From assembly GCA_051362555.1 (NCBI GenBank), contig CM120640.1:57576788-57640787 (forward strand): a stretch of 64,000 nt of DNA. The letters are read 5' to 3'. Of the stretch, positions 9,475-51,100 are shown one piece after another. Numbering within the stretch: the first letter of the stretch is position 1; each line of letters opens with the position of its first letter. A model generated the notes under the pieces. That model was given only the letters and a program-made list of their open reading frames with translations, ran no database searches and had not been told where the DNA came from. The translations under genes and the position numbers were made by a program. This DNA is from Lingula anatina. Taxonomy: Eukaryota > Animalia > Brachiopoda.

Positions 9475-9554
<80 letters not shown>

Positions 9555-13106: not shown

Positions 13107-16100
13107 TCATTGTGTACCCATGGGCTTCTTTTTCTTCTTTTTCTTCTTCTTTTTCTTTTCTTCTGTTTGACATTTATCCAAGTCTTTACTCTGTGGCTGT
13201 GAGTCCTTAGGCTGTAAAGACAGACTTCCCATTGATACTGCATCCACATCCATTGGGACTTCTGCTCCATTCACCAAATTTGAACCATTTCTGCCTTCAA
13301 AATGCTTCCTCACTTAAAAAACAGGAAAACAATATTTATCTTGACATACCTAATAACTGCAATTACCACAACATTCATTTACTGTGATGATTATATATAA
13401 AATAAATAAAATATCATCAATTTGTTTTAAAATTCCTTTTCCATGTTACAATGGAAGCGGCATTTAAAGTTAATATATAGAATACTTATCCTCTCAATCC
13501 AGCAATTGGGTCTACATATTATGTAAATTTAACAGTATGTTTGCATTGCTTAGACAACCAAAACAAACTGGAAATGCACTTCATTATTTATGACAATGCT
13601 GGTATGCATTTGCTACAGCCTGAAAATAGTGCAGTCAACGAGACTAATATCTATCAACATTTAAGCATCGTATCTACTACATATTTTTTCTTTTTTGTTG
13701 TTGTTGTTGATAATATCCTTTATTTTTCTTCCAATCTAGGGTGCATTTAAAAATATATATCATAAATAACATAAGGTCATAGCATCAGAACTGCTTGCAT
13801 ATCTGCTTATTTGATGAAGAAATCATGAGCAGACTTTCTCAAATAACACAAATCAGTTAAAGTATATGACAACAGACTCAATACAGCAAATTGGTTGCAA
13901 AAGTTTGCCCAAGAATCACCTTGAGGAAAGCACATAGCTTTGCAATTTTCAACCACAGATGTGGCATCTTGACCTCTTAAATCCTTATCACATAGCAAAA
14001 CTCCAAAATTTTATGTGTTGTGTCTTTTAACAAATTGATTAAGAAGATTTGAAAGCAGTAGCCATTCTGGTTCTATCAGGCTATAATGACTTCTCCCCAT
14101 GTAATTTGCAAAAGCCAAAGAAGCAGCTAAATATCATTAATGCAGACCTGTATGTCTCTCCTTATGCAATTCACATAACCTCACCTGCAGCACTTTCTCG
14201 TATATCCCAAACCTTTAAGGCATTCTCCCCTCCTATAGCAAATACAAAGGCAGCATCTGGATTGTCTGCTACACACTGGAGTTCACCCTGGTATAAAAAA
14301 TGGTGTGGTTAAATTATTTCAGTGCATAATACACTTTTTTTATACAACACTTTCAACTTTGCATCATCTCAAATATAAGTTAAACATTGATATGGATCTT
14401 GTTTTGATAATCACGTTTACAGCATTTTTCTATCACAATTCCAGTTGTTCTTCTAAAAGAAAAAAGAAAAAAAAACATCTGACCTGGCTTACCAGAAACA
14501 AACTATTGGTATGGAAGTACTCTTACTTTAATGTACAAACAAGCTGTTAAAATTACTTGATCATGAACAAATAACACTACTAACCATTCCTAACTGTTTG
14601 TCAAGTATACATTCTGGCTTGTTATTTTCAATGTCCCAGACTTTGAAGGCTTTGTCAGCAGAAGACGTTACCAGCAGCCCAGGCACCTGGCTACTCAGAC
14701 GTAGACCTAAAATGAAGACAAAAATTATCAATTGAAGGAATGCAAAGCATGCATCAATATAGGCTTTCATTCTGGAAAACACACACACACATTTTCAACA
14801 GCACATCAACACTCACACACACATGCACCTGCATCTGCACACACACACACACATTCAAAGGGAAAACATCTGCTCATTTTGGCCAAAAATGGATCTTTCT
14901 GAAGTAAATGACAATTTTCCCATGCTCCCAAGGTTAATGAATGCATTCCAACATTCAAAGTCCTTTTTTTTTTCTAAAAAGTTTTTTTGTAATAATTTCT
15001 TCAGAGATTAGTACAGAAAGTAACCACCTATGGAGGTTTTGGTGGTATAACAGAATTCATTCTATGAGTTGCTTACAATGTATTTATTGTGAAAAATTTC
15101 ATACAAAGAGTTGTTCATCCCTTTAAATGTTGATGAAGGATCAAATTGTGAATGATAATGATATACAACAATAAATCAATCTTCCATACATTAATTAGTT
15201 AAACAAACCTGGCAGTTGTAGTTAGTTGACCACATTTGCTATGAAATATCAAAGAGCTACAATGATTGTTTAATGTAACAGTTAGGCATGAATTACAATG
15301 AGAACTAAAAAAGATTTTTTTACTGAGGGAGAAAGAGAGTCCAAGTATGTAAATGTGTGTGTGTGTTTGTGTGTGCGATTCATAAGTCAAAAACTGTACG
15401 ATTGCATATTTTTTTTACTGAGGGAGAAAGAGAGTCCAAGTATTTAAATGTGTGTGTGTGTGTTTTTGTGTGCGATTCATAAGTCAAAAACTGTAAGATT
15501 GCATATTTATTTGCCACTGAAAAAAAAAGATGAAATTTCAAAGACCTAAAAGAAAGGGATTAGTATAAACAAGTTTTTAGTATACCACAAATTATACATG
15601 TCAAAAAGAAAATAGGATAGAATACAAATATACAAGGGTCATGCAGAAGTTGACAATTTAAGGTAAGAAATTGCTTGAAATACACCCAAATTTTAATTTT
15701 TTTCCTAAGCATATGAATGATTATAAGTAAGGCTCAACTGAAAACTAATTTTTTCATCTGTTTCAGAACTATTTCAATAAGGCAAATTTGCTTGAATAAT
15801 AGGGGCCTAAATGACAAAAAACAAAAATAGGTAAAAAAATCTTCTCTTGTGGTTGTCATTGTATAAACTCAATTAAGATGCATAAGATCAACAATCCATC
15901 CTAACAAAAGAATTCCTCCCAGCTGTGAATAAATATTTTATTTAACAAGATCTGTTATAATAAGGCATACCCTTCCAACATCACACCTTCTAATATGTGC
16001 CTCCAACCAAATATGGGTAAGTGGGTTAATTGGTTAATCCATATCTGGGTAGTGGGTCATAAGAGAGCAAAATCATTCTTCCATTTCAAGTTCAAGGCAA

Positions 16101-19100
16101 TTTCATACCAGTGCTTGTTCCAGACATGGATCACAGAGAGGCTAAAACTCCATTGTTTATAAAGAGGGAAAAAACTTCAACAAAGAAAGATCAGGCACTG
16201 GGTTGTAATCTTCTGGAAATATGGCTATGAACCTGAATTTGGCAGATGTGTTGGGGAGCTCCTGGCCCTCTTTCTATCAGGGGTCAGGGACAATGAAAAC
16301 AAGCAACAAATCTGAATGAAGTGCTCCGCTGCAGTTGTTTTTCCACCACACTTCTGTTACGCAGCAGTCTGGCACCACCCAGCTTTTTGTGCATGGTAGG
16401 TAGACTGTAGGATCACTTTTTGCAATTAAAATTATAACCACTATTAGGATGAATAATTAAAATACTTATCTTTAGCACTTTAGATCATTAAATTAATTAA
16501 ATTAAATGGAGACTTTCAATGGTTTTAATCATTAAATTCCTTTCCTTAAATTATCATTGCTTTTATTCTTCTTTCTTGCTGTCTGCAATATATTGAAAAA
16601 AATACTTTTTCAATGTGAAACAGTGTAAGTTTATTAAATGTTACCCCTAAAAAATCGGCAAAGAATTAATCTTTCGTCAGTTGCTCATGCAAAATGATAA
16701 ATATATTATTTATATTATTTTCATCTCTCAAGGACTTTACCAAGATGCACCTGAACACTTTCACCTGCCTGTTTCTATTGGTACAACTGTTCCAAAGTAG
16801 GCACACAGCTAGACTGAACACAACAAAGCCCAGAGGTGACAACTCGACCAAACAGCAATGTCAACTGGATCTGAAGATTCCAGATTACAACAAACTGTGT
16901 CCAGATCACAGGAAGCAGATGCATCGTCACAATGTCCTTCTTACTAAACTCATTAAGGCACAAGAAGCTTTTATGTCTGAAATGAGTGTCTTAATCCAAC
17001 AAGTCAATGAGAAAAATATACAAGATGAGCAGGATCTGCAAGATGATGATAAATTGAACAAAGACCAAGGAGACAGTGCAAATCAACTAGAATCAACCCC
17101 GGTAGAAAAAAATGGGGGAATTCTTGTGGCTACTCTCGAGGTGAATGAGGTAAAAAATCATGAAAAACAAACTGAGCAATTAACAATGCGCCTTGAATAC
17201 CTGACCAAACAAATGAACAAGCAGAATGAAGTCCTTAACCAGATGATTCTAGAGAGATCTGAGTATAAGATGAACCTGGAAAATATGAAGATGCAGATGT
17301 TTGATGCCTTGCGTGACTTCAAGAGCCTAGAGACCAAGGTGGACACCATGCAGTCACATATGACTTTTCAGTACAGACCACAAGTTGACGTTGCTCCTCT
17401 CACCGAGTTCCATCAGACTATTTACCTGGGTAAGTGACATACACATAAATGAATCAAACAAACACGGACATTTCCAATAACTTTAGTCCTTTTTTTTTTT
17501 TTTTTTGAAAATTAACCTGTTACAACAACATTTACAATAATGTATTTTATGAAAGCAATGAGATTTTAAGATGAATTTTGCAGATTTTCACAGACAAGGG
17601 AATTAGAATACATAAAAACTTGTTAAGAAACATTTTTTAATCCAAATTTCATGATGGTAAATGTGAAATGCCATTTAAAAAGCATTAAGAAACAAACAGA
17701 AAATTTAGCATTTATGACTTTTGAATGTTTTGGAATGGCACTTTATATTACCATGATAAATCTCAGATGAAAACGGACACTTTAGACAGATATTTGTTAA
17801 CTATTTTGTACAGAGATTCTTCAAATCCTTCATTCTTACAAGTAAGTTTTGTTTATAGATGAACAGTATGCCCTTCCAGTAGCAGATCCAGGCTCTGTGG
17901 TCTTCGAGTGCACATTTGAAAAAGACCTATGTGGCTGTGCTCAGGATACAGATGATGACTTTGAGTGGACAAGGCACAGCAAAGAAACAACTACAAGAAT
18001 GACAGGGCCATCACATGACCACACAACTAGAGGAATGGGTATGTGGGGTTCCCTGGTATCTAAGAGCTAGACATTAGGTGCTAAAACCTCATACGCTGTT
18101 AACCAGATTTCATTTTCCCAAATTTGGGCAATCAGTTGCCTTGAATATTTTTTCTTAGCAAAAAGTCAACTAAAAGAAAAACTTAAATTCTTAGACCATA
18201 TTTACATACTTTCTCAATATTGTCATATTTCTTTCCAAATAATAATAAACTCTCATCATGGTGAAAGGGCCACTCCATGGAATTTTCCCACCAAAATTAA
18301 CTTTCTTGTGTGAAAACAAGGCAATGCGCGTGACAAATGATGCTGTTACTTTGACTGACCACTCATAAAAAACTAAAGTATCAAATTAAAAATGGAATAA
18401 AACATCGAATCCAAGTGCAGGGATGGGTCAAGCAATAATTCACGAGTAAGGGGAATTGTTCTATGCCCCAGGAAAATTAATTTTCGCAGGAAAATTCTAT
18501 GGAGTGGACCTTTAAAACAAAGAGATGTAGTCATCAGTAACAATGTAAAAATTACAAAATTTTCCTATCAAAATGCAAATCTTTTTCCAAGGCTATTACA
18601 TGTACATTGAGACATCTCCCCCACTGAAGCCTGGGGATAAAGCCCGCCTTACAACCCCTCCTATGGCCATGAGTAAAGATGGCTACTGTGTCCAGTTTTA
18701 CTACCACATGTTTGGCTATTCAACTGGGTCTCTCAGTGTATATGTCAACACAGGGAAAGACGGAAGAATGAGAAAGACTCCCGTCTGGACAAGAACAGGT
18801 ATATCAAAGTCAAATTATATCAAAATTTTGGTAAAATGTCTAATTGCGTCAATTAACCAGGCACACAAAAGTCATATTGGCATCAGACAATCCTGCAAAT
18901 GTGCAGGCAACTAAAATTTTATGATATTATGTATCTTGAAAACCAAAAATCATAGCAGATTCTTTCATTACTCAAACATAAAGACAATTTGAATTGGCTT
19001 AACATGAGAATTGACTATCATAGTTTAAGAAGAAAAGCAAATCACTGCAGTAAGAAATTATTCCAACACTTGCCACTTATTTATTTCTTTAAAAAAGCAG

Positions 19101-22100
19101 GATACATAAAAAACAATGTTTAACTTGTCATTCTGTTTCTTTGTCTTAACTTTTCTACCATAAACTCCCATAACTTCACACATTTTTTAAATGGAGAACA
19201 TGCTTTCAGCAGCCCCAAATTTAATCCCATTTGCGTATTTCAGGTAACCAAGGCAACATTTGGCACAAAGCCCAGGTGAGACTGGTGGCAGTGGACAAAG
19301 TCCAGGTGACATTTGAAGGGATCCGAGGGTTCACAGGACTGGGAGATATTGCCCTGGATGATATCTTGATCAGAAATGGAAAATGTATTTGAAGGAATCA
19401 ATCTTTTTCAAATGACATTAAGGGAAACAAGCCATGTTTTCAAAAAATGTTATGTCACTTGTTATTCCTTACATCAATCTTCTTCTTTATCTTTAATTTT
19501 TTTGGCAGGATTTAGAGTTCTTACATATAGCTTATAGTATCATAACCATCACATATTAAAAATTTATCAGAAAATGGTCATAAATATATGCAACAATTAA
19601 GTGAAAACATGCCATAAAATGACACTAGGAGTAACACATACAGTGATTTTTTTCACATTTTGATGAATAAACAGACGTGAAGTATTAGTAAAACTGGTGA
19701 AGTATTTTTTAATGACTAACTGACATCAAGATATTGACAATCTCATTATTCCTAACACCTTCCATCTTCCTATTTTATAACAATATAATTATTAACACCC
19801 TACAATTCTGGTCTTATGACAACACAATGGCTAAAATGAAGCAACATGGACTAAGGAAAACAGAAAAAAAATCTTTTGCCATTTTGCACAAGAAATTAAC
19901 CCGAAAAATCCATAAACACACACACCTTTAATATCTGATACAGTCACCTACCTGTAACTGCCTTGTCATGTGCACTAAGTGTGAAGACTGGTTTGTCCAT
20001 TCTGGCATCTACATAATACACAAAACCCTGGTCAGTACTAGCCTGTTAAAAAGAAGGAAAAATATCAAGTAAAAAACTGCTATGGTAACCATGGCATAAA
20101 CATGTTACACCTTGCGTGTGACCAAGCACTAAAAACAGCACTAAAAACACTTCTTGGGCCAAGAGACACATTTTATAAGTGGTGATTTAAGTGTATGGAA
20201 TATTGCCCATGAAATATGCCATCTGCCCTTATAATTGGAGATTTTAATTTAAAAATATTAAATTTAAAAATATTAAACCCTTTTATTATCATTTAAACAG
20301 TTTAAGATATGGTTTTAAATATTAGAACAAAGCAATCATTTTGGTTTAAACTGGTAAGATGCATTCTTCAATTTTTCTCTCTAAAAGCCTATTTTCCATT
20401 CATTTAGAGGAAGGTGACATTAACAAATATATGTTTTGTAAAATGTTATAAAAAGTTTGGGATGATAAAAACCAATCATGTACCAAATAATGAAAGGGGG
20501 AGAAATGATTCCAGGTCACACGTTCTATCTCGCCTTTTAACTGCCATGTCTTGTGAGTATCATTGGGACATCTGCAGTCATACACTTTCACAGTCCTAAA
20601 AATAAGACAAAAATGAAAAGAAGTGCATCAATACTTCATTTGCATCAAAATAATACAAATAATGTTCAATCTGAAGAAAAATCGCCTTTGTAAAATACAT
20701 ATCATATATCTATTTTTACATGATACATACTGATCAAAAGATCCACTCAACAAAGACTGTGCTTCAAATGGATGCCATTCTAAAGTTTGCACCTGAAAAG
20801 AAAAGAAATTATGTAAGATCATTGTGACATTATTTGAATGATAATAAATACTGTTAATATCTCTAAGACACAACTTGAGAAAAAACATGCAATATCTAGA
20901 AGTTCGCAGCACAGGAGGCAAATAAAATTGCATGTAATACTTTGTAACAGATGGGCGGATTGAGGCCATCTTCTGGGTCTTCTGGAAGATGGTCAGATAT
21001 TCAAGTTTACATTGACATCTGTGGGAAGACGGTCAAAAATGGAGGATTGATCAACAAAGATAATTTGGAAAACTGTCAGAAAATATCTCTGCATCCGCCC
21101 TTGACAGAATATGACCACATTTTTGAAATTTCCCTTTGTGCCTAGTGTAATGTTTTCTTCATCTTTAGTTATTAAACATCTTACCTTATAAAGAAATGTT
21201 TGTTAAGTAGAATGAAAGTAATAACATCTTGGAATTATGAACTTCCATGCATGATTACAAATGTTGAAGTTTTTCCACAAGATGCAAGTCACTATAACAT
21301 CTTACCTTATAAAGAAATGTTTGTTAAGTAGAATGAAAGTAATAACATCTTGGAATTATGAACTTCCATGCATGATTACAAATGTTCACTTATGCACTTA
21401 AAACCTGTTAATTAGTAAAAAAAGACCCACAGGAATGTATTCTTACCTTCTCTTTGTGCTGTCTTATAGAGGTTACCATAGTTCCCTGTGACAGATCCCA
21501 AAGCCCTATGGTAAAATCTGCAGATCCACTTGCCAGAACATTGCTAATTTGAGTAAAAAAATATCTGTTAATTTCCATACACCTTACACAAATAAAATAA
21601 TTGCATTATCATAAAGGGAGAAACTTTAAACTAATCTCTTGTAACTGTCCAATTTCAAATCTTAAGGCTAAAAGATAGAACAATATTCTGCATTCTCTGA
21701 CTATGACTGACCGTGCTTCCTTATTCCAAGAAAGGTCCAAAACAGCATCTGTGTGACCAGCAGCAGTAGCACTGTTCTTTTTCTGAAAATTATGGATTAA
21801 ATAAATGACCATTATTAATTTACATATATCTAAGTACTAATGCAATTTTAATGCAATTTTTGGGATCACTGACAAACTTCAACCGAAAATGACTTACTTT
21901 ATGAAATGACCTGATTTTTATTTGTTAGTGAACTTGAGGTTACAGCAAACCCAAAACATATTGAGAACCCTATAAAATGTTACCACTATCACATAACAGG
22001 CATATAACTTGGCAACCAGCATGTTATTATCTTTCCAATTTTTATTTCATGAATATAACTGAAATGTAAATTCACCTTTTTGGATTTCTTCACTTTAGTT

Positions 22101-24007
22101 CCCAACGTGAATGTTGGTTCTAAGCAATCTATAACATCAAGATCCCAGAGATCTATAGTTGGTTCCATACTACTCACTGCCAGCATATTTCCTGAAAAGA
22201 CAAACGCGGTACACATTTAAAATATCTGTATAAACACAGGTCAAATGTGGATCCAAGCCCTCTTCTTCCTATTCCGAACGAATACGATGGATAAATCCCT
22301 TTACACCTCTTTTCAATATGAGAGTTAAAACATGACAATGGTTAGATATGTGAAAATCTCCCAATGACCCACTGATCTCCCCCACCAGCCTCCTTGCCTT
22401 CTATCCTAGATCTGTGAATGTGCAATTCACCTTGTAATCACCATCTAGTATATATTTGCAAGAACAGAGCATTCTGCCTCAAATTGCTTATTTTCTCCAT
22501 TTCCCTAAATATTGAAAATACATAAAAACTGACGGGTATATGACAAAAGATCTCACAAACCTGTCTGCTGTTCCCCTGGGTCATAATTCAACCACTCTAA
22601 TGCCAGGGGAAAAGATGGGAGTATAATGTCATGGTGGCAGTAAAAGTTTGCCTCCTCCTCATTGTACACTGAAACAAAGAATAATTATTCTATGATTCCT
22701 TGATGGACAACAAGTAGTTCATTTAACTCAAACAACGAACTCTTAAATCAAGCTCAACATGTTACTAATCTTAAGCATGTATCTACTGTTAGATATATAA
22801 ATGATAAACCTTGTTTCACTTATAGAAAAGTAAATATAAAAAAGAATAAGCACTCACCATGTATTTCTAACAGAGTGCAATCTTGTTGAACTCTGGCTAC
22901 CGCCAATAAATTATCAGTAGGTTTTATCGTAAAATCTTCATTATCACTGTCATCCTGCTAAAAAATCATGTACATCATTATTTGGCTAAAAGTGTTCAGG
23001 TGAGTAAAACAAAAAAGGATATTGTGAAAAAAATTCAAGGTTTTATAAATCAAGCCAATACTTGAAAAATAAAAAGTCACCTGACATAGTAACAGAGGAT
23101 ATTGGTTTGAAACTTGATAATATGCAAAAGAGAAGCAAAAAATCTTTTATACCTCATCCTTCAATGTAATATATGGATCATCATCATTGCTTGCATAATA
23201 TGTCAGACCAGCAATTCCATCCCAAGGAGAAGAGACTAAAATTCACAAAAATAAAACTTCTTAATGTAAATCTATAACAAACCTTTCATAAAATAGTCAT
23301 TATTTTAATGGTCACAGCCTTGAGGAAAAGCATCTGCTTTATCTTTTTTTTATTGCTAGCCTACAGAAAATGTAACTAATATAATGCAATACCTTCCTCG
23401 TCTTCATCATAATTTTCCAGGCCATATTCAGCAATTATGTCATCAACATCTTCCTCCTCAACATCATCCTTTTCAGGTTCCTCCTTTCTTTTCTTTTTCT
23501 TTATCTTCTTCTTTCCTCCTGTGGCTATTAAATCAGCTCCTTCCATATCGTGTACTTGGTCTCCATCATCTTCTTCTTCATCTCCTAACTCTGCATTTCT
23601 TTCAGAGAGAAAAACACAGCATTAGTGCACCAACAAAAGTGAAGAGGAGTATTTTACATAATTTCCCGATGAAACCAATAAATTAAATTAATATTCCAAT
23701 AAGTGTGAGCAACTTACGCAATGCCCTGCTTTGTATCTTTTATAATCTTCTCAAGTTCCTCTTTAGTAACTTGCACCTGAAAACAATGTAAAATTCCAAT
23801 ACAGCAAGTTGAACTATCTTAACTGCAGTACCCAGCAATTAAGATTCATGAATTTCAACATTACTAAAATAACGAGTTTACATTTCCTTATCAACTCAAA
23901 ATTAGATCTTTAAGAAGTTAAAATAAGGTATAAGTATTTACCTTATCAGGTGTAGCTTTGGCCACTCCTTTCTTTACCCAAGTCAAGCAAGGAACAAACC
24001 CTTTCAT
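13107..24007 (-). CDS. PWP1: Periodic tryptophan protein 1 (WD40, ribosome biogenesis), ~532 aa
   Basis: 15 exons: 24007-23942, 23776-23718, 23598-23393, 23235-23153, 22954-22858, 22668-22561, 22191-22076, 21782-21712, 21543-21447, 20792-20731, 20595-20484, 20042-19952, 14706-14585, 14287-14185, 13312-13107 (sum 1599 nt, in frame). Motifs: [13 protein letters not shown], acidic N-terminus, [57 protein letters not shown]. Confidence 0.95.
15315..15509. repeat. Tandem duplication, ~100 bp x2
   Basis: TTTTACTGAGGGAGAAAGAGAGTCCAAGTAT...(GT)n...GATTGCATATTT repeated directly. Confidence 0.85.
16745..19392 (+). CDS. Secreted coiled-coil + MAM-domain protein, ~406 aa, nested antisense in PWP1 intron 12
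   Basis: Exons 16745-17429, 17859-18038, 18592-18798, 19244-19392 (1221 nt, in frame). Signal peptide [16 protein letters not shown] and heptad-rich middle. MAM motifs: [64 protein letters not shown]. Confidence 0.9.
18266..18511. mobile_element. Kolobok-like MITE
   Basis: TIRs AGGGCCACTCCATGGAATTTTCC / GGAAAATTCTATGGAGTGGACCT, flanked by TGAA and TTAA. Confidence 0.6.
20951..21101. mobile_element. Short MITE (GGGCGGAT...ATCCGCCC termini)
   Basis: Related copies at ~42831-42993 and ~59001-59157, inside the HINE-like elements. Confidence 0.6.
21175..21386. repeat. Tandem duplication, 121-bp period
   Basis: AACATCTTACCTTATAAAGAAATG...GATTACAAATGTT occurs twice. Confidence 0.9.
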
Positions 24008-25496: not shown

Positions 25497-26561
25497 ATGG
25501 ACCTCCTGCAAATGGCAGTTCAAGGCGATGATGAGGAGTTGATATACGCTCTCCTTCGCGATAGACCTCAGAAAAGGCTGATAACCTACATGTTGTATGA
25601 CCCTGAATGGCCAAGTTTTAATTTGGGTACCCTTACTAACGATCAGTGTTTGAACGACTTTCGCTTTGAAAAGGAAGATGTATATCGCTTGGTAACGTTA
25701 TTAGGACTTCCTGACATGATAACTGTAACTAACAGATGCAGGGGCAGCGGACTTGATGCCTTATGTATGGTTTTAAAGAGATTTTCGCACCCAAATCGAC
25801 TGAGTGATTTGGAAAGATTTTTTGGTCGACTTGCATCGACCTTATCCGTGATCATCAATCACACTGTTGGTCTACTCTATGACAGTCATCATCATCATCG
25901 TTTGGATACACTGGATAATCCGTGGTTGGGTCCTGCACTACTTCAAATTTATGCTAATAAAATACATGAGAAGGGTGCGCCACTGCAGAACTGCATAGGT
26001 TTTGTGGATGGCACGGTTCGTCCTATAAGCAGGCCAACACGCAATCAACGTGTATGTTACAATGGACACAAGCGCATTCACACATTGAAATTTCAATCAG
26101 TGGTGATACCTAGCGGGTTGATTGCACATCTTTATGGTCCTCTAGAAGGGCGAAGGCATGATTGTGCACTGCTTCGTTTGAGTGGACTGATGGAACAAAT
26201 GGAAGCTAGAGAGCTTACTGATAGGAATGGTCTACCATACGCAATTTATGGAGATCCGGCTTACCCCATTAGAAGGTATCTGTTGAGTCCCTTCAGAGGA
26301 GCAAATTTGAGTGCCGAAGAAGAAGAATTCAATAGGAGAATGTCATCTGTCTGGGAATGCGTCGAGTGGGAGTTTGGAAACTTATTGCGAAACTTTGCCT
26401 TCCTGGGCTTTCGAAAGAATTTAAAAGTTCTGTTGTCTCCTGTAGCTAAGTACTACTTGGTAGGTGATCTTCTGGTTAACTGCCATACCTGTGTGTATGG
26501 CAATCAGACCAGTCGGTACTTTCAACTAGATCCTCCCACCTTGGAGAACTATTTAGCATGA
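25497..26561 (+). CDS. Harbinger (HARBI1-like) DDE transposase, 354 aa
   Basis: Intronless ORF with GFVDGT, YNGHKRIHTLKFQ, GRRHD, IYGDPAY and VEWEFG (DDE triad present). Confidence 0.9.
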   Translation: MDLLQMAVQGDDEELIYALLRDRPQKRLITYMLYDPEWPSFNLGTLTNDQCLNDFRFEKEDVYRLVTLLGLPDMITVTNRCRGSGLDALCMVLKRFSHPNRLSDLERFFGRLASTLSVIINHTVGLLYDSHHHHRLDTLDNPWLGPALLQIYANKIHEKGAPLQNCIGFVDGTVRPISRPTRNQRVCYNGHKRIHTLKFQSVVIPSGLIAHLYGPLEGRRHDCALLRLSGLMEQMEARELTDRNGLPYAIYGDPAYPIRRYLLSPFRGANLSAEEEEFNRRMSSVWECVEWEFGNLLRNFAFLGFRKNLKVLLSPVAKYYLVGDLLVNCHTCVYGNQTSRYFQLDPPTLENYLA

Positions 26562-28326: not shown

Positions 28327-31300
28327 ATGGTGCAAAACCAACACGTCTTCCACAGCATATGTCTTCCACTGCTTCTTACAGCATCATGCATGGGTCAAAC
28401 ACTGCAGTTCCCAAACCAAATCATCATAGGAGGGGTGCTGGGTACCCAAGAATCCATGGATTTGTTTCACCAATGTATAGAAGAAGCCAACCAACCTGGG
28501 GTTCTCCCAGGCAATATCACAGTAAAAGGAGCAGCCATGCTGATGGATGAAAACCCAATCAGAGCTGCACGAGATATTTGTCTTAAGATGATATATCAGC
28601 AGGTGTATGTGGTGTTGGTCAGCCATCCACACCCTAATGCCAAGTCCCCGCTGTCTGTCTCATACACTTGTAAATTCTATAACATCCCTGTCATTGGAGT
28701 TGGAGGAAACTTGAGAGATAGTATTTTCTCAGAAAAGGTATACATGCAGATTGATCTCATTTTTATTTACAGTTTTAATATCATTTTGATTTAGATTAGG
28801 CTTTTATAAATGAGGAAGTAAAGGGAGTTATGTTGCTGGTTTTAAACCTCAATTAAAGGGATAATAACTCTTCGTTTTGGCCAAAAAATGAATTTTCCTG
28901 GAGTAAACAACAATTTTCCTGTACTTACCAATGGTTAATGAATCCATTTTTACATTCAAAGTTAGTCCCTGTTTTTTTTCTAAAAAGTTTGGTTTTTTGT
29001 TAAAATCTCTCAAGAGATTATAACAGAGTATAGCCATCAATGGAGGTCACGTGGTCTGAAGACAAGCTCAGATATCAGAATAATAGCTTTAACTGCTGTT
29101 TTTGTCTTGAAACAATATATTACATTTCTGAGTTATTCACAATGTTTTTATTGTGAAATATAGACCTCATACGAAGAGTTATTATCCCTTTAACTTTGTG
29201 TTTATACAACTGATTTAATAACCAGGCTTAATATAAGGTTGATCTGATAAGTTAAAAGGCACCCAAGAAGTACAGTTGTATTTTGACTGTCATTATTTGT
29301 TATAATGTATCTGTGTATGAATCGCAATTGAAGTTGCATGGAGTTATATTTTCTGTGCATTAAACAAAAATACCAAACCATGCAGATATTTTTCTTTCTT
29401 AGTTTTCAGTCAGACTTTTTCTATTCCAGAGCGTCCATGCCACTTTCCTGAGGACAGTTACCTCAATCTCCCACCAGGCCGACCTGTGGCTAGAACTACT
29501 TAAGTTCTATAAGTGGAAGAAAACTGTTTTCATCACTGAGCTCACTCAGGAAGGCAGGAACATTCTCAGCAGATTTCAGAACCAGGCCAAAAGCACAATA
29601 GAGGTTGGTTATCGTGTCATTTAAGTTAAACATTATGCCTTAACTCATTTGTTGGTATTATTTTTGGTTAGTTTGAACTATTGTAATGCAAGGTATTACT
29701 GTAGATAGATTTAGATTTATTTACTTAACATCTTTTTTCCAGCTTGAAAAGACTATATTGTTAAAACCTGGACTGAGGAGCTATTCAGATGATTTATTAG
29801 AGCTGGAAAAGGCAAGAGCCAGAGTGGTGTTGATGTTTGTTTCGTAAGTAATGAATACTTAAGCTATGTTTTAATGAAAAATACTTGGAACAGGATTTCA
29901 TGGTTGGCATTGCTCTTTCAGTTGATGAGATTCTGGCAACATAAAAAAGTCATGGAAGAAGTGTGCATGTATGATCTGTACTAAGTACTGGATCAAGGCT
30001 TGATATAAATTCTTTTCAGGCACTTGCCCTGTGAGTCAAGTAGGTCTGAAAATCTGCTTGCCCCACTCTAAATCAAAAAGGCCAAGTAATGCCATTAAGT
30101 ACATTGAGCCCTGCTGGAGTGGCACTGTTGTTATATAGTACTTTGTTAATTTTAGCCAAAGTGTTGCTGAGGTGGTGTACAGGGATGCTGTACACTTGAA
30201 CCTGACTGGCCCAGGATTTGTGTGGATTGTCACAGAACAGGCTTTGACTGTCCAGAATATACCCCAAGGTACAGAAGCAATGTGAAAGATTCTGTCTTCT
30301 TGTCAATTTTGTTTGCGCCTTGTAATATATCAGAATCATACAAGGAATGTTTTAAATTCATTTAGACTGTAAAATATACTCATTAAAGTATTGCATTTAA
30401 AGGATTCACTGAAACTGTCAGTTTATTTAAGTTACTACAAATTAGACCCCCACCCCACCCCACATTTTTGGTCTTTGGCATATGCTCATTATTCTAAATA
30501 TTAATAAAAACATTTTTGTGAATTTTTGTTAATTATCTGCTGACATTTTAGTACTTTGGCATTTTTGTTTTAATTTTACTACTAAAAAAATGTATTTCAA
30601 TCTTGGTTGTGACAGCTCGTGCTCATGATACAGTCTTACCAAAAAATAATAAAAATAATAGCTAATAAAAAATAATAATAGTAAAATAGTTTTGTTTGTT
30701 GTAATGATGGTGAATAAATTGGATGTATTGCCCCTAAATAAATGAGAAAAACTGTTATGCTATGTGATCCAACATGTTTTTGTCTTATAATCTCTAGAAC
30801 TGAGGTAGGTCATGGGGTGAGTTGAGTTTGCCAAAATGTCAGTTATGGCCTAATGCCAATAAATTATAGATATAATTATTATTTCTTCTCATTTATTCAG
30901 GTATTTTAGGTTTCCAGTTGCGTTTTGGCATGAATGAGTCTCTTCACATCCAGGATGCTATGCATGTTGTGGTGAAGGCCATCAATACTATGTACAATAA
31001 AGTGAACCTCACTGAGGCCCCTAATCGTTGTATAAGCCATACTGAAGATGAAGTAGGATCTTGGGATAGTGGCCAAGTCATGTTTAAGTAAGAAAATGTT
31101 TTTGTTTTCTCTTGGGGCAGAATATTTAGATTTATTTACACAGTTGACCAGTCTTGGCAAATGTTTTGCAAGTCATATTTGTAATCAAAATAATTTTCAA
31201 AATGAAATTTGACTTTCAAGAGATGTAAGAAGTCTAGTTCCTTATACACTTTTATAAAATGCTTCCATAAACAGTTCCTTAACATTTAACTTTTTATGTA

Positions 31301-34300
31301 CAGTTTTGTAAGTAAAAAATATTGAAAAAAACAATGCATTTGCAGTTGTCTGTAAACCATGTTGATGTCATTTAAAAAGCAAAGCTATTTTTAGTGCCCT
31401 AAAGGAAGTTGAGCTTGCTGATGGGAAGACAGGAAAGGTAAAATTTGATGAGGTTGGAGATCGTGACAGTCCTGTGTATGACTTGGTCAATGTACAAGAA
31501 GGCAAGCTAGTCACAGTGGGCACTTATGAAGGCAAGGTACTGCATTATGGACAAAGGTCTTGCCTTATGTATCCTGCCATATTCTAATTTAGCTAAAAAA
31601 GTTGAAACATTTGACTACTTATTGTTTAAATTGCTGTGATTCAATTTAAAAAAATGACATGGCTTAAATAACCCATTTATTTGGTTATAATATATTTTAT
31701 CCTGGAGTGAACACAGAATCCTTGTAATTAAGTGTATTGATGTGTTATGGTATTTCTCTGGTCTATTTACTTTTTTGATATGAACATTTTAGTGAAAATA
31801 TAGATTTGTAAACACATTTGATCATTGTAATTTATTTAGCTCAAACTAACACATTTTCCTACTTTGAAGATGCAGACCAAAAAGCTGAATGTTAGAGGTC
31901 CAATTCTCTGGCCAGGTGGACAAATGACCACACCTCTGGGAGAGAATATTGAGACACATTTGAAGGTAAGAAATGAGGCAATGGTAACTTTTTTAAAACT
32001 CGCATCAACCAAAAATTTATGTACTAATAAAATTGTTGGTCATAAAACCCTCCAAAAAAGGTTAAACTTCTCATCATTTGTTAAACCCCATTCTTAAGAA
32101 AGTTACCCTGACATTTTATGCTTCATATTCAGTATGAAAAGTTTCCTTATAAAATGTGACATGTAATCCCCAAATACAGTGAAACTGGAACATATTGAAG
32201 TCCTTTGCCAACTTCATTGATGGTGATCTTATGTTCATATTTGTATGACTGGTTTTAGGTGGTGACCATTGAAGAGGTCCCTTTTGTATTCTCACGGGTC
32301 ATCCAACCAGGAGAACAGTGCAAGACCATGCCAAGCCTGGAAGATGGAATAAGAGAAATCTACTGTCCACATATTAATGTTACAACTGGTAATCTTGAAA
32401 TGTGTTATCAGTCTGTCATTATTCCTCTCTCTTATTTTCAATTTTGATCCCTGTGTGGAAGTTACATTGCTGGTAATAACTGAATAAAGAAACAGAAGTC
32501 CTTCTTATTTTATTAATTATCTTAATATAAGCAAAATAGAATGATAGTAAAACATGAGAAAAAAATACGGAAAAATGCTGCTGTCAGAACTGAAAATCAC
32601 TCATCATGTGTAATAGTTTTTGTTTCTGTTATTGATCATTAAGCTCGCGTCTGCTAGCAATTTAAATTTTCTTTTATATCTTCACAGATCATTGTTCCGC
32701 TGACATGGAATGATTTGCCATTTTCAGGTGTGAAGACTCATAAATGTTGCAAGGGATACTGTATAGATTTGCTATTCAAGCTTGGTACCAAACTAAACTT
32801 CACTTACGATGTCCATCTTGTTGGAGATGGCAAGTTTGGTGTTTTGGAAAAGGTAGTTTGTTTATTCTCTTTATTTACAACTATATTTTTTATAAAGTGA
32901 ACTAGAAAAGAAAATAGAAACCATAAATTTTAATGAATGTAATTTTGTTGGTAAGATATGATGATGCCAAAAAGATTCAATTAAATAAAATTGAAGGTAG
33001 ATATTTTAGGCTGTATTCCCAGAGCTTTTAGATCGATCTTTCCCCGTGGGGAGTCTCACTAGATTACTGTCAGATAATCCGGCTTAAATGTCTGTCCCAC
33101 CTACTACAAGCTGTAAGGGGGTAATTAACTTTCGTGTCCACTCGGCTGACAGCTATTTAACGTGAACCCCCAGGGAGTTAGGTCGATCTAAAGTAGATCG
33201 ATCTAATCTCTGGAAATGGGGTCTTAGATATTTAACAAATTTTGTGTCACAGCAAGAGACATTCTGTGGTATTCATTGAACACTTAATTTGTTAGAACTG
33301 TCTTTTACTCCTAGCTGAACAAGGCTGAGATAAATGTAAAATTGAATCAGATTCAGTGCAGGCATTTCAGTGTAAGCATGACTCTAGAAAATAACTAAGG
33401 TATGTTGTATTTTAGAACAATAGGACAGCCCAAGAGTGGAATGGAATGATGGGTGAGCTTTTGAAGAAAAAGGCAGATCTCATTGTGGCTCCTTTAACTA
33501 TAACTCCTGACAGGTCTCTGGCTGTGAAGTTCTCAAAACCTTTCAAATACCAGGGGCTAACAGTTTTGATGAAGAGGGTGAGTCATATATTTTATGTTCA
33601 GCTGCTTAATTAACTGTATGTCACAATCACCTTTGTCTGTTAGTGTTACTGGAGGGCGAGTTTGGAGGTGTTGAAACTTCTGGTTATTGCAAAAACTTTT
33701 AATCGAAGTTTTAGTTTTGCTTCATATGTTCTACACTTACTAGGCTCCAATCACGATGACTTTCTTGTAAATATGATCACTAGTTTCTTGGCAAACTATA
33801 CACAGTAGTGATTAATTTGAACCATCTCTTTAAGTGGAATCTAATAAATATGTATATATTTTTTTTAATTCAGGAAAGAGAGCCCAGTAGCATTGCGGGT
33901 TTGTGTGCAAATGATATTATGCAGGATGCGTGGATCCTTGTTAAAATATCTCTTGTATCTTCAGGGTCACAAAGACTCCAACCTAGGCTCCTTCCTCCAG
34001 CCTTTCCAACCACCTCTGTGGATTCTAGTTCTGCTGTCAGTCCATGTGGTGGCCTTGGTGCTGTATCTGCTGGACAGATTCAGTCCATTTGGTCACTACA
34101 AGCTGGCAAAGTCCTCAGATGAGTCAGAGGAGCACCCCCTTGACCTGTCTACAGCCATATGGTTTGCTTGGGGAGTGCTGTTAAGCAGTGGCATAGGGGA
34201 AGGTGAGAGCGCAAAGGGAAATTGATCATTTCAGTGCAGATGAATTATGATTGTAAGAAAATGATAAAGTATTTGTGTGATATTTTTCTTGGAGTAATTA

Positions 34301-36931
34301 AATGAAATTGTTTATGATTCGACCATTTCTTCCAATGTTTTATTTGATATATAATTGTGCATCAGGTAAAGAGAGACTTCTGTGACAATTGAAAAAAAGT
34401 AGGCTTACTGGGCCTGCAAGTTTTGAAAGCTGCTGGCACTGACAAAAAGTTTTTTTTTTTAACAGGAAGCTGTTAGACTCGGGCCAGGATCATGGATGAT
34501 TTCTTAGATTTTTGTGTACAGATATATTTGGTTTTATTTCATATGTATTGTCTGCCTCTGATAAATCTATTCATACTAACAACATAACCTTCTTTTTTTG
34601 TTCCAGGCACCCCTAGAAGTTTTAGTGCCAGGGTGGTAGGGATGGTATGGGCAGGTTTTGCAATGATTATCATTGCTTCTTATACTGCTAACCTGGCTGC
34701 TTTCCTTGTGCTAGACAGACCACCCTCTGCAGTCTCTGGTATAGATGACAGACGGGTAAGTTGAGGCTTTGATTCTTAAGATATATACTTATTCTGAAGA
34801 CTGGTATAATACCAAATTACCAAAAAAAAGAAGCGTAGATAAAAAATCTATTATTTGTGATTGATCGATTGGTCACTATTTCCACGATTTATTTAATTTA
34901 CCTTATTGTAACTGATCCCCTCTTTCAGTTGAGAAACCCTACAGATGAGTTCATCTTTAATACTGTCAAAGATTCCTCTGTAGAGGACTACTTCAAGCGG
35001 CGTGTAGAACTGTCTACCATGCACCGGACAATGGGGGACAATCCAATACAATACGAAACTCCTGATGAAGCCATTAAAGCAGTGATAGAAGGGTACTTAC
35101 CTTCTATTTTTTAAGTTTTGACAATCTTTCATAATTTGATTGAAGACCAGCATTCAAAAATAAAATAAGTAATATATTAACACTTCATTTCTTGGTTTAT
35201 TGTAGCAAATGAAATTATTACTATTGTAAAAAGAAATAAGTTTTTCTTTTTGAGCTGTAATAAGTGAGGAGAATGGGATTTTTGTGCCATATTGTGACAT
35301 GGCCTAGATCCTTAAATCAGAACTTGAGACCTGGCACAAACCATCCACACATCAGGTAGCAGTTCAACTCTATGCCCACTGTAATTTCGTCATGAGATCC
35401 ATAACATTCTGCTATTTTACATTGCAGGAAACAGTTAGATGCCTTTATTTGGGAATCCACTCGTCTGGAGTATGAAGCTGCCAGGCGCTGTGATCTGGTC
35501 ACAGCTGCGGAGATGTTTGGCAAGGAGAGACTTGGAATAGCAGTGCGCCATGGAAGTCCTTATGCTGAGTCCATTAATCTGCAGGTGCTGGGATTTCATG
35601 AAGGTAAGCATATTCCCAGATACCTATATCCATTGACTCTGTCAGTGTCTAATTAATGTTGATGTAATGTTTTTTTTTTTTTTCTTTTTTAAGTATTAAT
35701 TTGGTTTTCTCATCAATAATTTTGATGATTTTGATGATTCTAATTATTTTGTTAAACATGTCTAATTATTTTGTTAAACATGTTAAACATATCTCGTTTG
35801 CAGAAGGTGACATGGAAAGTTTAGATGGCAAATGGATTCTGAAGAGTAACATAAAATGCAATGAAATCAATTCATCTCCTGCTACTCTTGGGCTGACTAA
35901 CATGGCAGGTGGGTAGCATGATGCAGGATGTTCTCTATCTGAACCAGGTGCATCTCTGGTAATATTATTTCATTTGTTCTACACAAACCATTGATAAATT
36001 TTGCTTATGTCAGTCTTGCAAATACAGGACAAGGAAACTGAAGTATAAAATCTGTTTTTGCCCCATAATCTGAAAAACGTTTTTGAGAATTATGCTGTAC
36101 TTCTGCCAGGCGGATGGGCCCACTAATGCTGAACCTATAACATCTTGATTCATGGTGGTAAGGGACTTTCATAGCTGTTTCTGATATAAATTGTTGCACT
36201 TGACTATATTCCAGGGGTGTTCATGTTGGTAGCTGGAGGTATACTGTCAGGAATATTCATAGTATTTGTAGAGATCACCTACCACCGCCATGTGTCAGCC
36301 AGGCAGAAGGAAATGGAGCTGGCACGTCATGCTGCAGCAAGATGGAGGGGAAATATTGAGGTGAGTGGTCCTCACATGAATTTTCATTGATGAAGTATAT
36401 TTGAATTTCCTCTTTCTCAGTACATAAGTTAAAATATAACAGTAAATATCACTAAAGCTGAAAGGAGGTTAAGAGGCAGCCAGTATTGTGGTTGATGTAT
36501 ATAAAATATTATTTCAACTTATTTCAATTTGAAAATTTTCAAGTCTTATATGCAAATAGGAAAGTAACTACTTAACAAAGATTTTTCAGTATTCATGAAG
36601 TATTGTTAACAAGACGTTCTACTATATTTTCTTAGATTTGAGAATAATGGCAAGAAAAGTGCCTAATACTAATATTACCTTTCACCTATTTAGTGAACTG
36701 TAATGTGATTAATATATATTTAAACCTTGACTTTTGATTGATCTCTTTTTTTTTTTTTTTGTTTCTCATTTTATGAGAATGCATGAGGTGGCGATTTCTA
36801 CTTGCATGTTCTTTTATCTTTTATATGCTGTTGCTTATTTGTTAACTATATTTAGTGTTATAGAAAGTTATTTGAAAAATTAACTTAGCCTTGCGTACAT
36901 GCTTTCAAAACAAATAATACATACATGGAGG

Positions 36932-36968
<37 letters not shown>

Positions 36969-38526
36969 ACCGCCATGTTGATTTGATCTTGGTGTGGATC
37001 ATTTGATGGTAATTGAAGTAAAATTGATAGTTTTCAGTTGACTTTCTATAATGTGCCTTGTAAGGTGTGTGTTCTGTTTTCATACAGTATGTGTGCAAAG
37101 TGACAGCAAAAATGATGACATGCTGTTGACAATACCAAATTGACTAATTGTTTTGAAGCTGTTGTCAGTTTTATTTTACATGCAGAAAATAATGACACAA
37201 TTTTTAAACTGTTAACCACTACTAACGTATAATCTTAATACCATATCACTAAAACCCCAATGTTAAATCCCAGTCTATTTCACAATCCACAGCAGGCAAG
37301 TGTCTTCATGTCAGTGAATTGATCAAGGCATTTGTTGAGGTTTTCCAAGCTTCATTCTTGCACAAAGTTCTCCCAGCTACCCTCTTGCAAGGTGGAAGCC
37401 AGTTCACCATTCTTCATAGGTTTTGTGAAATTACAGGCTTCTGAGATTTTGTGATTAGAAGTGGGTGAGTTTGTTTAAGTGCATGATGCATAAAAAAGTT
37501 CTTCAAAAGGCACATTTTACCACAGCCTGATTAAGGAGTTAAGAATGGCTTGTGGTAGCTTTGAAGCCTGAGACATTGTTTATTGTTGATGAATTTGTCT
37601 GATGTGATTGGATGATTAAGCCTTACGATTTGGTTTCACTTGTTCTTTTATATTTAGAGGGGTCACGCTTGCTGAATTCTACCCATAACTTAGAACTTCA
37701 GTAATTATATATCCATTTTTATCCATGATTGATGTTTGCTAACTTAAATGAATTATATCAAAACAGTAGTAAGGGTCGGGATCACTACTTAGAACTCTTA
37801 TCATATTAGAAAAGGAAGACCTTACGGGCAAGCTGGGCAGTGCTGAGGAAAGACAAAGCAGATGATTTGGATGAGGTAGTTATGTTTTCAGTGCACTCAA
37901 TAATGGTGAAATAGTACAACAACCACATGTGTATGAATACTATCTCCAATTCAAAGAATACTCTTGGATTTTTCTTTCATTTTATAAGTTTATGCACTTA
38001 TATTTGTCCTGATATTTAAATTGGATTGTTATGTGGCATGGTGTTTTATTCCTTTCTGTGTCCCTAAAAGGATGTCCCTGGTGACATTGTCTATTACATA
38101 AATGGTTTATTTATATGTTGTTGCTGTTGTCATACTTTTGATGTTGTAAAAATTGGTTTGTATTAACTTGTGGGCTGCTTTGATTCTACCTTTATCATTT
38201 TGATGTTTTTTATTTAATATTAAAAGAAAGAAATTGAGACAACTTTAACATTAACAAAAATGTTGTGGATAATTATTCAGAAGCGACGCATGCAGCGCAG
38301 TAACCAGCTTGAGCATGAGCAACTTCAGCAACTGCACAACGGAGCAGATGGCAAACTTGTCAATGGAAGAGGTGCCCTGCACCGTGGTATAGAGGGCGCT
38401 GCACAAGCTGAACCAGTACCATACCCAACATACTCTGGTGGGGACTGGGAGCAAAGAGAGCCTGAATACACAGTTGCTGGTGCTGACAACAGAGATCACA
38501 GTGGTCAGAGAGTGGACATTGTATAA
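28327..38526 (+). CDS. GRIN1: NMDA receptor GluN1-type subunit, ~976 aa, divergent at pore and ligand residues
   Basis: 18 exons: 28327-28737, 29430-29603, 29743-29843, 30156-30268, 30901-31087, 31395-31536, 31870-31965, 32259-32388, 32728-32852, 33416-33577, 33965-34202, 34607-34755, 34929-35092, 35428-35603, 35804-35908, 36215-36360, 37810-37875, 38281-38526 (2931 nt, in frame). GluN1 hallmarks: [91 protein letters not shown]. Confidence 0.93.
28857..29189. mobile_element. Kolobok-like MITE, TTAA TSD
   Basis: TTAA|AGGGATAATAACTCTTCG...CGAAGAGTTATTATCCCT|TTAA, with a second copy at 53001-53331. Confidence 0.8.
33009..33223. mobile_element. Tourist/Harbinger-type MITE, TTA TSD
   Basis: Subterminal inverted TAGATCGATCT motifs and TTA on both sides. 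Second copy at ~49418-49636. Confidence 0.7.
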
Positions 38527-48120: not shown

Positions 48121-51100
48121 AAATTTTCATTAAATCCCACAGTCCTCTCTCAGCCAGGTAACAGTGTCATTTGATGTGTGGGGGGTGGCCCTGTCTTGCT
48201 GGAAACACTGTCCATCTCAATCTAAGACTCTGCTCCCCAGTGACTGCCAAACTTCCTCAGCACTGCCACAGTGACATCAGAAGAGACTGATCAGCAGTGA
48301 ATGTGGGCAATCCATTCACAGGACTTGAACTCCCAGATTTTTTTTTTTTTTTTTTTTTTTTGGGGGGGGGGGAGCACCCTGTTCATGTGATTAAATTTTT
48401 TATAAAGTAATAAAGAAGCTTACCAAGGATTTACTGGGCGATAAGCCCACAGAACAAACACAGACTCAAATATCTGAGATGCATCTTTTTAGGGAATTAC
48501 TTGGTGAATGCCGTTCAGTACATGGTACTGAACTTGTCTTATCTAACTTATTTTGTACATGTATCCTGATTGAATTGTGTCACATATAGCCACACCTCTA
48601 TCTTATTATTCAGTGTTCTTAGAATTCGCTACTGTTTGATAACAGGCTGCAACGTGCAACCTTTTCTGCCCTTTAAAAAAGCCATAGTTTAATTTAAAAA
48701 AATAGATGGTAGAATAACAATGTAGCGTTATTATTATTCACAAAATAGTTGGTGATACCACTTCATGCATTAGCAATATTTTGATTTATTTAAGTGATCT
48801 ATCTCATGATGCATTTATGAGAAGTTGGAGAGTAAGAGTACAGGTGCACTGGTATCTTATCTACTTTGTCAGTTTATATAATAAGTTGAATTGAAGGGTG
48901 GATTATCAGCTAACTGACAAACAGAAATAACGCAAGCCTGCGTAATACTATGGAGGTAATAATACCACTGTCAAGGGGGAATTTATTTTCAGAGCTATTG
49001 TTATTTGACACAACTGAATGGATATATCAATTAAGCTTTAAAAAATCTATTTAATTTTTTTTTTATTTTCACAATATAGAAAAATAGTAACAATGTATAA
49101 TAACTTTGTGAATTAAAAATGAAAATTCTCAGACACAAGCCTAAATTTTTCCGTACCGTTAGCTTACGGCCATCTGGTCGAAGGCCTTCATCAGGCTGAC
49201 GTGAGTAGTTGTTCACACTCACTGACCGCTAGGTGGTATAGCGGCCAGGACCCTCTTATAAATGTCAGGTAGATCAACCCCCCCCCCCCCCCCGTCCCTA
49301 TTCATGGGTGGCTGGTATCGGCTGATGTTGATAGCCTATCGTATTTTTCGCGGGATGTCGGATGATTCAGATTCAAGAATCTTAGTTGAATTCCAATCGA
49401 TACTGTGGCCGGTGTCATTTCCATAGATTTTTAGATCGATCTATCCCTGTGGGGAGTCTCACTAGATTACTGTCAGCTTGGCCGGCTTAAGCGTCTGTCC
49501 CGCCTACTAAAACCTGTAAGGGGGTAATTAACTATGGTGCCCGCTCGGCTGACTGCAATTTAGCGTGAACCCCCAGGGAGTTAGGTCGATCTAAAACTTA
49601 ATCCTTAGATCGATCTAAAGCTCTGGGAAAGCACCCTATATAGGTGTACATGTTCAGAAATGGCAGAGCTGGTATTGCCTACAATCACTGATTTCCTGTG
49701 TTCACTCACCCTGATCTTCAACTGTCTACCTGTCTCACCAATGTAAAAGGAATTACAGTCATGGCAATTGATCCTGTATATTGTCCCACAACGGTGATCT
49801 TGGGGGGTTTTGTCCTTTGGTGCCACTAGGTGTTGTTTCAATGTGCACTGAGGTCTAAAAGCTGTATTTTTTTTAAAGCAGATATCATACCACCAAGTGT
49901 AACAAAATCAGTAATATTTCCAAATTTTTGTGTAATTTGATTAAAGTTAAGATATTCTCCATTTTTGTCAATCAAATCATTTATATAATTGATGCCTGAT
50001 TCCTGCCAAATTTTATTCGTCATAGTTCTTTTATTTATCAAGATTCTATCATTTAACCTTATGCATTCCTTCAAAAATTAATCTCTGGTACAGACACTTT
50101 TATGATCTAGCAGATTTTATCAGGGATCAATAACATCTTTCCAAAATGAGTTTCTTAAATTACATCTTATAGATATCAGTTTTCCCTGACCAATTTCGGC
50201 CCATTGTAAATTTGGTATTCATTGAGTCTAAAAAGGATGTCTTCCATTTTGAATCTTTTTTAAAATATACATCTTCTTAGCCAGGTTAGGTTTAGTGCAT
50301 AAATGTGATACTTAATGTCAGTACTCTGTCTTAATTCCTCCATTTCTATAATTTGAATAATCTTTTCCCTTTTAACTTCATCAATTTTACCATTCCATAA
50401 TCTAAAACATAGTTCTTTAATAAAATCTGTGTTCGGGTTAGGAAGTGAAGTAAAAAGATGAGTAAGGTAATTAATATCAAAGGTTTTAGAACTACATTCC
50501 TACCTAATACTGTCAGGGGTCTCACCTCTTTACTTCTTTGAATTTATCTTTATAATTCTTTTCTATCATTTCCTGTAAGTTGATTGAAAACTCAACTCCT
50601 AAAATGTCCAAAGTCTTTGAATTCCAATCTAATTTAAAATCTTTACAAAGAACGGTGTTAGAATTTTTCATATTTCCTATCCAAATCATTTTTGTTTTTT
50701 GTGAATTTACAGTTAAACCAGACATGCTAGCGAAGTTTTTTAGAGTTTGGAGCACACAGCATGTAAAATTTTCAGTTCCATCTAAAAATATTGTCATATC
50801 ATCAGCATACTGAGATATTAAAAAATTTTTATTATGCATTTTAATGCCATTTATATGGTCATTATTTCTTAACATACTAAAAAGAATTTCAGCACATAAT
50901 ATGAATAGGTATGGTGAGAGGGGATCACCTTGGCGACAGCCTTGATATACTTTTAAGAGGGAAGAAGAATGTCCATTCACTAATATACATGACTGTGAAT
51001 CTTTCAAAAATATTTTTACCTATTTAATCATTGATTTTCCAAAACCAAAAAAAGTCAAGTGTCTTTAAGATAAAGTCCCATTCCAAAGAGTCAAATGCTT

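Follow-up and report, generated by a model that had tools for sequence, protein, structure and literature searches.

A genomically encoded serine at the GluN1 pore asparagine site of the brachiopod Lingula anatina

The asparagine at the Q/R/N site of the GluN1 pore loop (N616 in rat and human) is treated as invariant in NMDA receptors. The Grin1 gene of the brachiopod Lingula anatina raises the question of what channel is formed when a GluN1, seemingly the only one of its species, carries a fixed Ser at this site; such a state would allow the dispensability of Ca2+ entry and Mg2+ block for an animal's NMDA receptors to be tested. A first-pass annotation of the window (i.e., the whole 64-kb stretch of DNA that was analysed) had noted the Ser codon, regarded the rest of the gene as intact, suggested a naturally re-tuned NMDA channel and remarked that the change is the one A-to-I editing would make.

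The GluN1 gene spans 28327..38526 on the forward strand and runs from ATG to stop in an open frame of 974 aa, with all introns of the GT-AG type. Its 18 coding exons are located at 28327-28737, 29430-29603, 29743-29843, 30156-30268, 30901-31087 and 31395-31536 (exons 1-6), 31876-31965, 32259-32388, 32728-32852, 33416-33577, 33965-34202 and 34607-34755 (exons 7-12), and 34929-35092, 35428-35603, 35804-35908, 36215-36360, 37810-37875 and 38281-38526 (exons 13-18). Spliced RNA joints are found for 8 of the 17 introns, namely those between 32388 and 36215, and the other 9 lie outside the stretch compared with RNA. The gene model is 99% identical, with several residues differing, to the protein of another assembly named L. 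anatina glutamate receptor ionotropic NMDA 1 (XP_013416499.1, here P0002). An upstream acceptor for exon 9 at 32688 was considered and discarded, as it breaks the frame; the acceptor at 32728 restores the frame and is backed by RNA joints. P0002 carries exons 9-10 twice: its residues 548-658 form a repeat of about 111 additional residues, reached via acceptor 32688 (window 32688-33577). As the window has a single copy with plain RNA joints, the repeat is probably an assembly artefact of P0002.

The domain set is that of GluN1: an ATD, S1, M1-M2-M3, S2, M4 and a C0 segment, detected on P0002 as PF01094, PF10613, PF00060 and PF10562 (C0, residues 954-982, E 1.7e-08). Exon 11 (33965..34202, +) encodes M1 and the M2 pore loop; over 79 aa, its product and P0002 are 100% identical. 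Exon 12 (34607..34755, +) encodes M3, in which the SYTANLAAF gate is intact and the Met equivalent to M641 is present, while exon 16 (36215..36360, +), mapped by tblastn, encodes M4 and the GluN1-specific C0 calmodulin-binding segment. Compared with the vertebrate columns, the window protein keeps F484, P516, T518, R523, Q536, S688, V689, W731, M641 and the M3 gate. It is orthologous to the canonical GluN1 proteins (vertebrate GRIN1, Drosophila dNR1 and mollusc/annelid NR1), with the same domains, including C0, and the same pocket and gate residues. It differs from them in carrying Ser for N616, Glu for D732 and KER for RSG, and in changes at 37 of 288 conserved columns.

The Ser is encoded by AGC at 34184..34186 (+), in frame within exon 11, and is residue 619 of the window protein. 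Alignment of exon 11 to the solved GluN1 chains is unambiguous (query 5-79 to chain 549-621, E about 1e-26) and places this Ser on N616, in agreement with the first-pass assignment of both the protein and the site. The same Ser occupies the pore N site of P0002. In the full difference table for 34150-35545, the codon is identical in two RNA runs (X19 and X20) and two DNA runs (X2 and X3), as are 35453-35455 and 35522-35530, where two further changes discussed below are encoded. RNA coverage at the places flanking the codon is about 16 reads in X19 and 11-14 reads in X20, and the DNA contigs have a depth of 166 with 0 other letters in X2 and a depth of 82 in X3. Eight of 21 sequencing runs were compared with the window, including four RNA runs over 32200-36400; read depth is low, at about 1-30 reads per exon bin drawn from 6-30% of each run. 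The Ser codon is real, genomic and transcribed unchanged, and the agreement of two DNA with two RNA runs rules out an assembly error.

The rarity of the residue and the low read depth would fit a broader explanation in which the Ser is an assembly error, a private allele or the product of a decaying pseudogene. The probability of this explanation is negligible, given the same Ser in the protein of a second assembly, the same codon in four runs, the open 974-aa frame, the spliced transcripts and the predominance of silent differences among those listed in the exons (20 of 22 and 11 of 13). Between the lineage of X19 and X20 and that of the window, 9 fixed silent places are found among about 113 silent sites (about 8%), by contrast to 0 fixed replacements among about 370 replacement sites, where about 29 would be expected under neutrality. 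The fixed count leaves out two minor replacements, which in X19 are carried by 3 of 19 and 4 of 27 reads, with two start places each. GluN1 is under purifying selection between these present-day lineages. Since no fixed replacement separates them, the Ser, the Glu and the KER have been retained across the split.

By descent, the window protein is a GluN1. It falls in a GluN1 clade of 24 rows with support of 100 (FastTree, with GluN2 and GluN3 as outgroup), and its grouping with lophotrochozoans has support of 90 in this tree and 94 in a quick tree of 39 rows. Its best solved relatives are GluN1 chains (E 1e-26) versus 1e-07 for kainate receptors. The placement is that expected of a brachiopod orthologue; no close brachiopod or phoronid relative is found among the listed protein matches, one of the top ones being a chiton protein, and no listed match to exon 11 falls between 81% and 100% identity.

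Ser at the pore N site is rare among homologs. The three lists of best matches (the best 120 of 494, 120 of 166 and 120 of 1342) yield 326 distinct clusters, of which 325 have Asn at this site, the sole Ser being P0002. Ser is thus not already common in related taxa. Among more divergent proteins (50%-identity representatives, the best 150 of 8741), and leaving P0002 aside, a GluN1-type pore loop is found in 44 of 149, with Asn in 42, Ser in one and Gly in one. The second Ser is carried by a GluN1 copy of the bdelloid rotifer Adineta vaga (UJR33351.1, P0393), which keeps D732 and has no KER. Adineta groups with the Asn-bearing Rotaria (support 100), and thus its Ser arose separately from that of Lingula. 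The Gly is found in GluN1 of Seison nebaliae (KAI3390050.1, P0396), together with His at D732 and no KER. The Ser of Adineta and the Gly plus His of Seison possibly represent independent losses of the canonical pore in the rotifer group.

An Asn-to-Ser change by one A>G is of the editing type, and the genomic G could in principle have been fixed from an ancestral state recoded by A-to-I editing. The A in the genome and G in RNA that characterize GluA2-type recoding are not seen in Lingula, where RNA equals DNA at the codon. Asn is read in the 325 other listed clusters, a count that includes Logan entries and entries that may derive from transcripts. Among the 37 departures from conserved columns, a single A>G could produce 7 and a single G>A could produce 4, with 26 beyond the reach of either; A>G is not in excess, and an ordinary transition gives the same change, as in the human variant. 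Hard-wired editing is very improbable, and the parallel drawn in the first-pass annotation finds no footing in these data.

Two further changes lie in the glycine-binding region. Glu738, encoded by GAA at 35453..35455 (+), stands at the glycine-binding D732 site (ungapped alignment of query 2-58 to chain 725-781), while Lys761-Glu762-Arg763, encoded at 35522..35530 (+), replace R755-S756-G757 of the S2 hinge strand before F758. Both are rare among the listed clusters: the D732 column is Asp in 165 of the 167 clusters covering it, with one Glu (P0002) and one Gly, and the hinge column is RSG in 164 of 165, with a single KER (P0002). KER is not found among the listed GluN1-type representatives, in which Glu at D732 recurs in three decapod proteins that all have RSG. 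These decapod paralogues (Palaemon P0382, Homarus P0404 and Penaeus P0512) resemble the Lingula protein in having Glu directly after W731; unlike it, they keep RSG, form an arthropod clade of their own and, in Palaemon, where the pore is covered, keep the Asn. The decapod GluN1 paralogues also have long acidic tails. Judged by its sequence, the Lingula protein is a GluN1 by descent that departs from the canonical NMDA receptor at two diagnostic residues, having Ser619 where Asn is expected at the GluN1 N site and Glu738 where Asp is expected at 732.

These changes occur in a protein that has diverged throughout. The first-pass view of an otherwise intact gene is correct as regards the reading frame, which has no stop in 974 aa, but not as regards the protein, which is changed at 37 of the 288 columns that 60 protostome rows conserve, including the D732 site and the RSG hinge. 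The changes extend across all domains, whereas other rows have a median of 2 and a maximum of 15; the consensus is set mainly by molluscs and favours them, though isolated rows still have only 10-15 departures. The terminal branch of Lingula is 1.51 in the 39-row quick tree versus a median of 0.34. Identity over M1-M3 is 83%, whereas six other rows have medians of 88-97%, and neighbours of the pore loop (positions 605, 608, 635 and 647) are altered as well. The divergence points in two directions: the Lingula GluN1 gene has been remodelled, and any single change may be tolerated or compensated.

This divergence is a ground for a rival explanation in which Ser619 is tolerated or compensated in a fast-evolving GluN1, and Ca2+ permeability and Mg2+ block stay near those of other lophotrochozoan NMDA receptors, where they may already be weak through an Asn-free GluN2. 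Consistent with it are the spread of changed columns over all domains, the low M1-M3 identity with several changes beside the pore loop, and the 12 of 34 GluN2-type representatives, among the matches listed, that are without Asn at both sites. Yet the Asn of GluN1 is kept in 325 of 326 listed clusters and in 42 of 44 divergent representatives, which implies constraint even beside Asn-free GluN2. In addition, every N-site substitution tested in the cited papers, as far as their available text extends, changed permeation or block, and no fixed replacement separates the present-day lineages. Compensation of this kind is somewhat unlikely.

A long branch also fits a duplicate freed from constraint, which leads to another explanation: the window holds a divergent second copy that tunes a subset of receptors, and a canonical Asn/Asp GluN1 lies elsewhere in the Lingula genome. 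Precedents include Penaeus, where the Glu-bearing GluN1 paralogue sits beside a canonical copy, as well as the nemertean Tubulanus, with two GluN1 among the matches listed. Against this explanation, the published inventories that were available list a single Lingula GluN1. One of them reports Grin1 and Grin2 only, with a Grin1 that is the window protein (PMC5225553), another counts 2 NMDAR genes (PMC10642201), and the accessible part of a third has at least 10 Lingula entries in its supplement, with one GluN1 (the window protein) and one GluN2 (PMC12226733). Thus, where the sequence is visible, it is that of the window. The three inventories probably rest on one older annotation and, hence, are not independent. 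No second Lingula GluN1 entry is found in the three lists of best matches (120 of 494, 120 of 166 and 120 of 1342), no second copy is detected inside the 64-kb window by tblastn, and the tree position is that expected of an orthologue. A second canonical copy is distinctly unlikely, and the window GluN1 is apparently the only one of Lingula. The tree answers the paralogue question raised in the first-pass annotation as regards placement, while the exclusivity of the copy is drawn from the published inventories.

The likely partner of this subunit has no filter Asn either. In the published alignment of PMC5225553, the pore tip of Lingula GluN2 is Gly-Ala, as in Limulus, compared to Gly-Gly in Priapulus, Gln-Ala in Tribolium and Asn-Asn in the lancelet; Asn is thus absent from the GluN2 N and N+1 sites of Lingula Grin2 as aligned there, the gene itself being outside the window. 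From these sequences, GluN1 seems to be the only source of filter Asn in protostomes, and Lingula seems to have lost it. A Lingula tetramer is predicted to be without filter Asn because its GluN1 has Ser and its GluN2 has Gly-Ala.

Comparable changes have large effects in the receptors of the papers cited here. Human GluN1-N616S with GluN2A spends about 97% of its open time in subconductance, with Ca2+ permeability undetectable, according to a preprint (PMC13370611), and N616S is listed as disease-associated in GRINdb (10.64898/2026.10.06.756690). The substitution is the same residue at the same site as in Lingula; the Lingula Ser is, however, a fixed wild-type state beside a Gly-Ala GluN2, whereas the human data have Asn-Asn in GluN2 beside the Ser. 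N616 of GluN1 is described as contacting Ca2+ and holding Mg2+ via water, with N616Q altering the block (PMC13246513). Fly GluN1 N631Q with native GluN2 shows no Mg2+ block (10.1101/542498 and PMC13065333, in passages citing earlier work), a result obtained with Gln rather than Ser. For a placozoan epsilon receptor as well as for GluA2, natural Ser is reported to lower the permeation of Ca2+ (PMC12226733). The placozoan protein, Trichoplax GluE1alphaA, carries this Ser at the Q/R/N site and, unlike Lingula GluN1, is a homomeric, polyamine-regulated member of the epsilon family and not an NMDA subunit, as described in the same source. At the glycine site, the rat D732E substitution lowers glycine potency 1,000-10,000-fold (10.1101/2023.08.03.551817). 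Neither Mg2+ data for N616S itself nor a recording of a Lingula GluN1 receptor was found in the literature searched, as far as the available texts go; Lingula iGluRs are reported to express already in Xenopus oocytes (PMC13520880 and PMC13648236).

A re-tuned channel, as proposed in the first-pass annotation, is taken as the best reading because the GluN1 identity, the N616 site, the intact and expressed gene, the rarity of Ser and the large effects of the same substitution in human GluN1/GluN2A all point to it. Specifically, it is moderately probable that an intact, spliced and apparently sole GluN1 with Ser619 and Glu738, likely paired with a Gly-Ala GluN2, forms a receptor with an Asn-free filter, low Ca2+ permeability, low conductance, weak Mg2+ block and a reset co-agonist site. 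The codon, frame, splicing, purifying selection, clade and rarity of the three changes are observed here; the single GluN1/GluN2 inventory, the GluN2 motif and the effects in human, rat and fly receptors are adopted from published papers.

In the mechanism envisaged, GluN1 Ser619 and the Gly-Ala GluN2 would assemble into the Asn-free filter, and the short hydroxyl side chain could not hold the water network by which N616 helps to dehydrate Ca2+ and hold Mg2+. Conductance of the Lingula channel would be low. Glu738 and K761-E762-R763 would lower or reset glycine potency; speculatively, Arg763 might pair with Glu738 from its position next to F758. The role of the receptor would then be less that of a Hebbian Ca2+ source than that of a slow excitatory channel for monovalent ions. 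A stronger version, in which all three hallmarks are lost, would have no Mg2+ block, almost no Ca2+ flux and a glycine site that is disabled or self-locked, such that glutamate alone or another co-ligand gates the channel. This version is unlikely; if true, Lingula would be a living bilaterian without an NMDA coincidence detector, its wild type carrying a substitution associated with disease in humans.

The Lingula case bears on the second-site changes that could make the human disease-associated substitution tolerable, while the glycine-site changes bear on the gain or loss of co-agonism. Published alignments have shown the residue since 2017 (PMC5225553). No published remark on the Lingula pore Ser was found in the mostly open-access literature searched on Lingula or brachiopod NMDA receptors, NMDA receptor evolution, Mg2+ block and N616S.

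The window also includes mobile elements and other genes. Intron 9 of GluN1 harbors, at 33007-33225, a high-copy element of roughly 220 bp with internal inverted repeats, over which RNA depth rises to about 900-1900 from copies elsewhere; the element is SINE- or MITE-like. An open frame of 353 aa for a Harbinger-type DDE nuclease (PF13359, E 1e-22) is located at 25497-26558 (+), 1.8 kb upstream of GluN1, and broken LINE reverse-transcriptase pieces (PF00078) adjoin a GIY-YIG fragment at 49608-51353 (-). The gene at 6981-10929 (+) is synaptotagmin-like, combining a transmembrane segment with two C2 domains. Exons with coiled-coil and MAM domains (PF00629) at 16670-18911 (+) apparently lie inside an opposite-strand gene at about 13000-23700 (-), which presumably encodes a protein resembling the WD40 protein PWP1; the one exon of it that was scanned has no Pfam match. 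The gene at 52713-59745 (+) has PF02885 and PF00591 and is taken to be thymidine-phosphorylase-like, and an Ig V-set exon is present at 61823-62272 (+).
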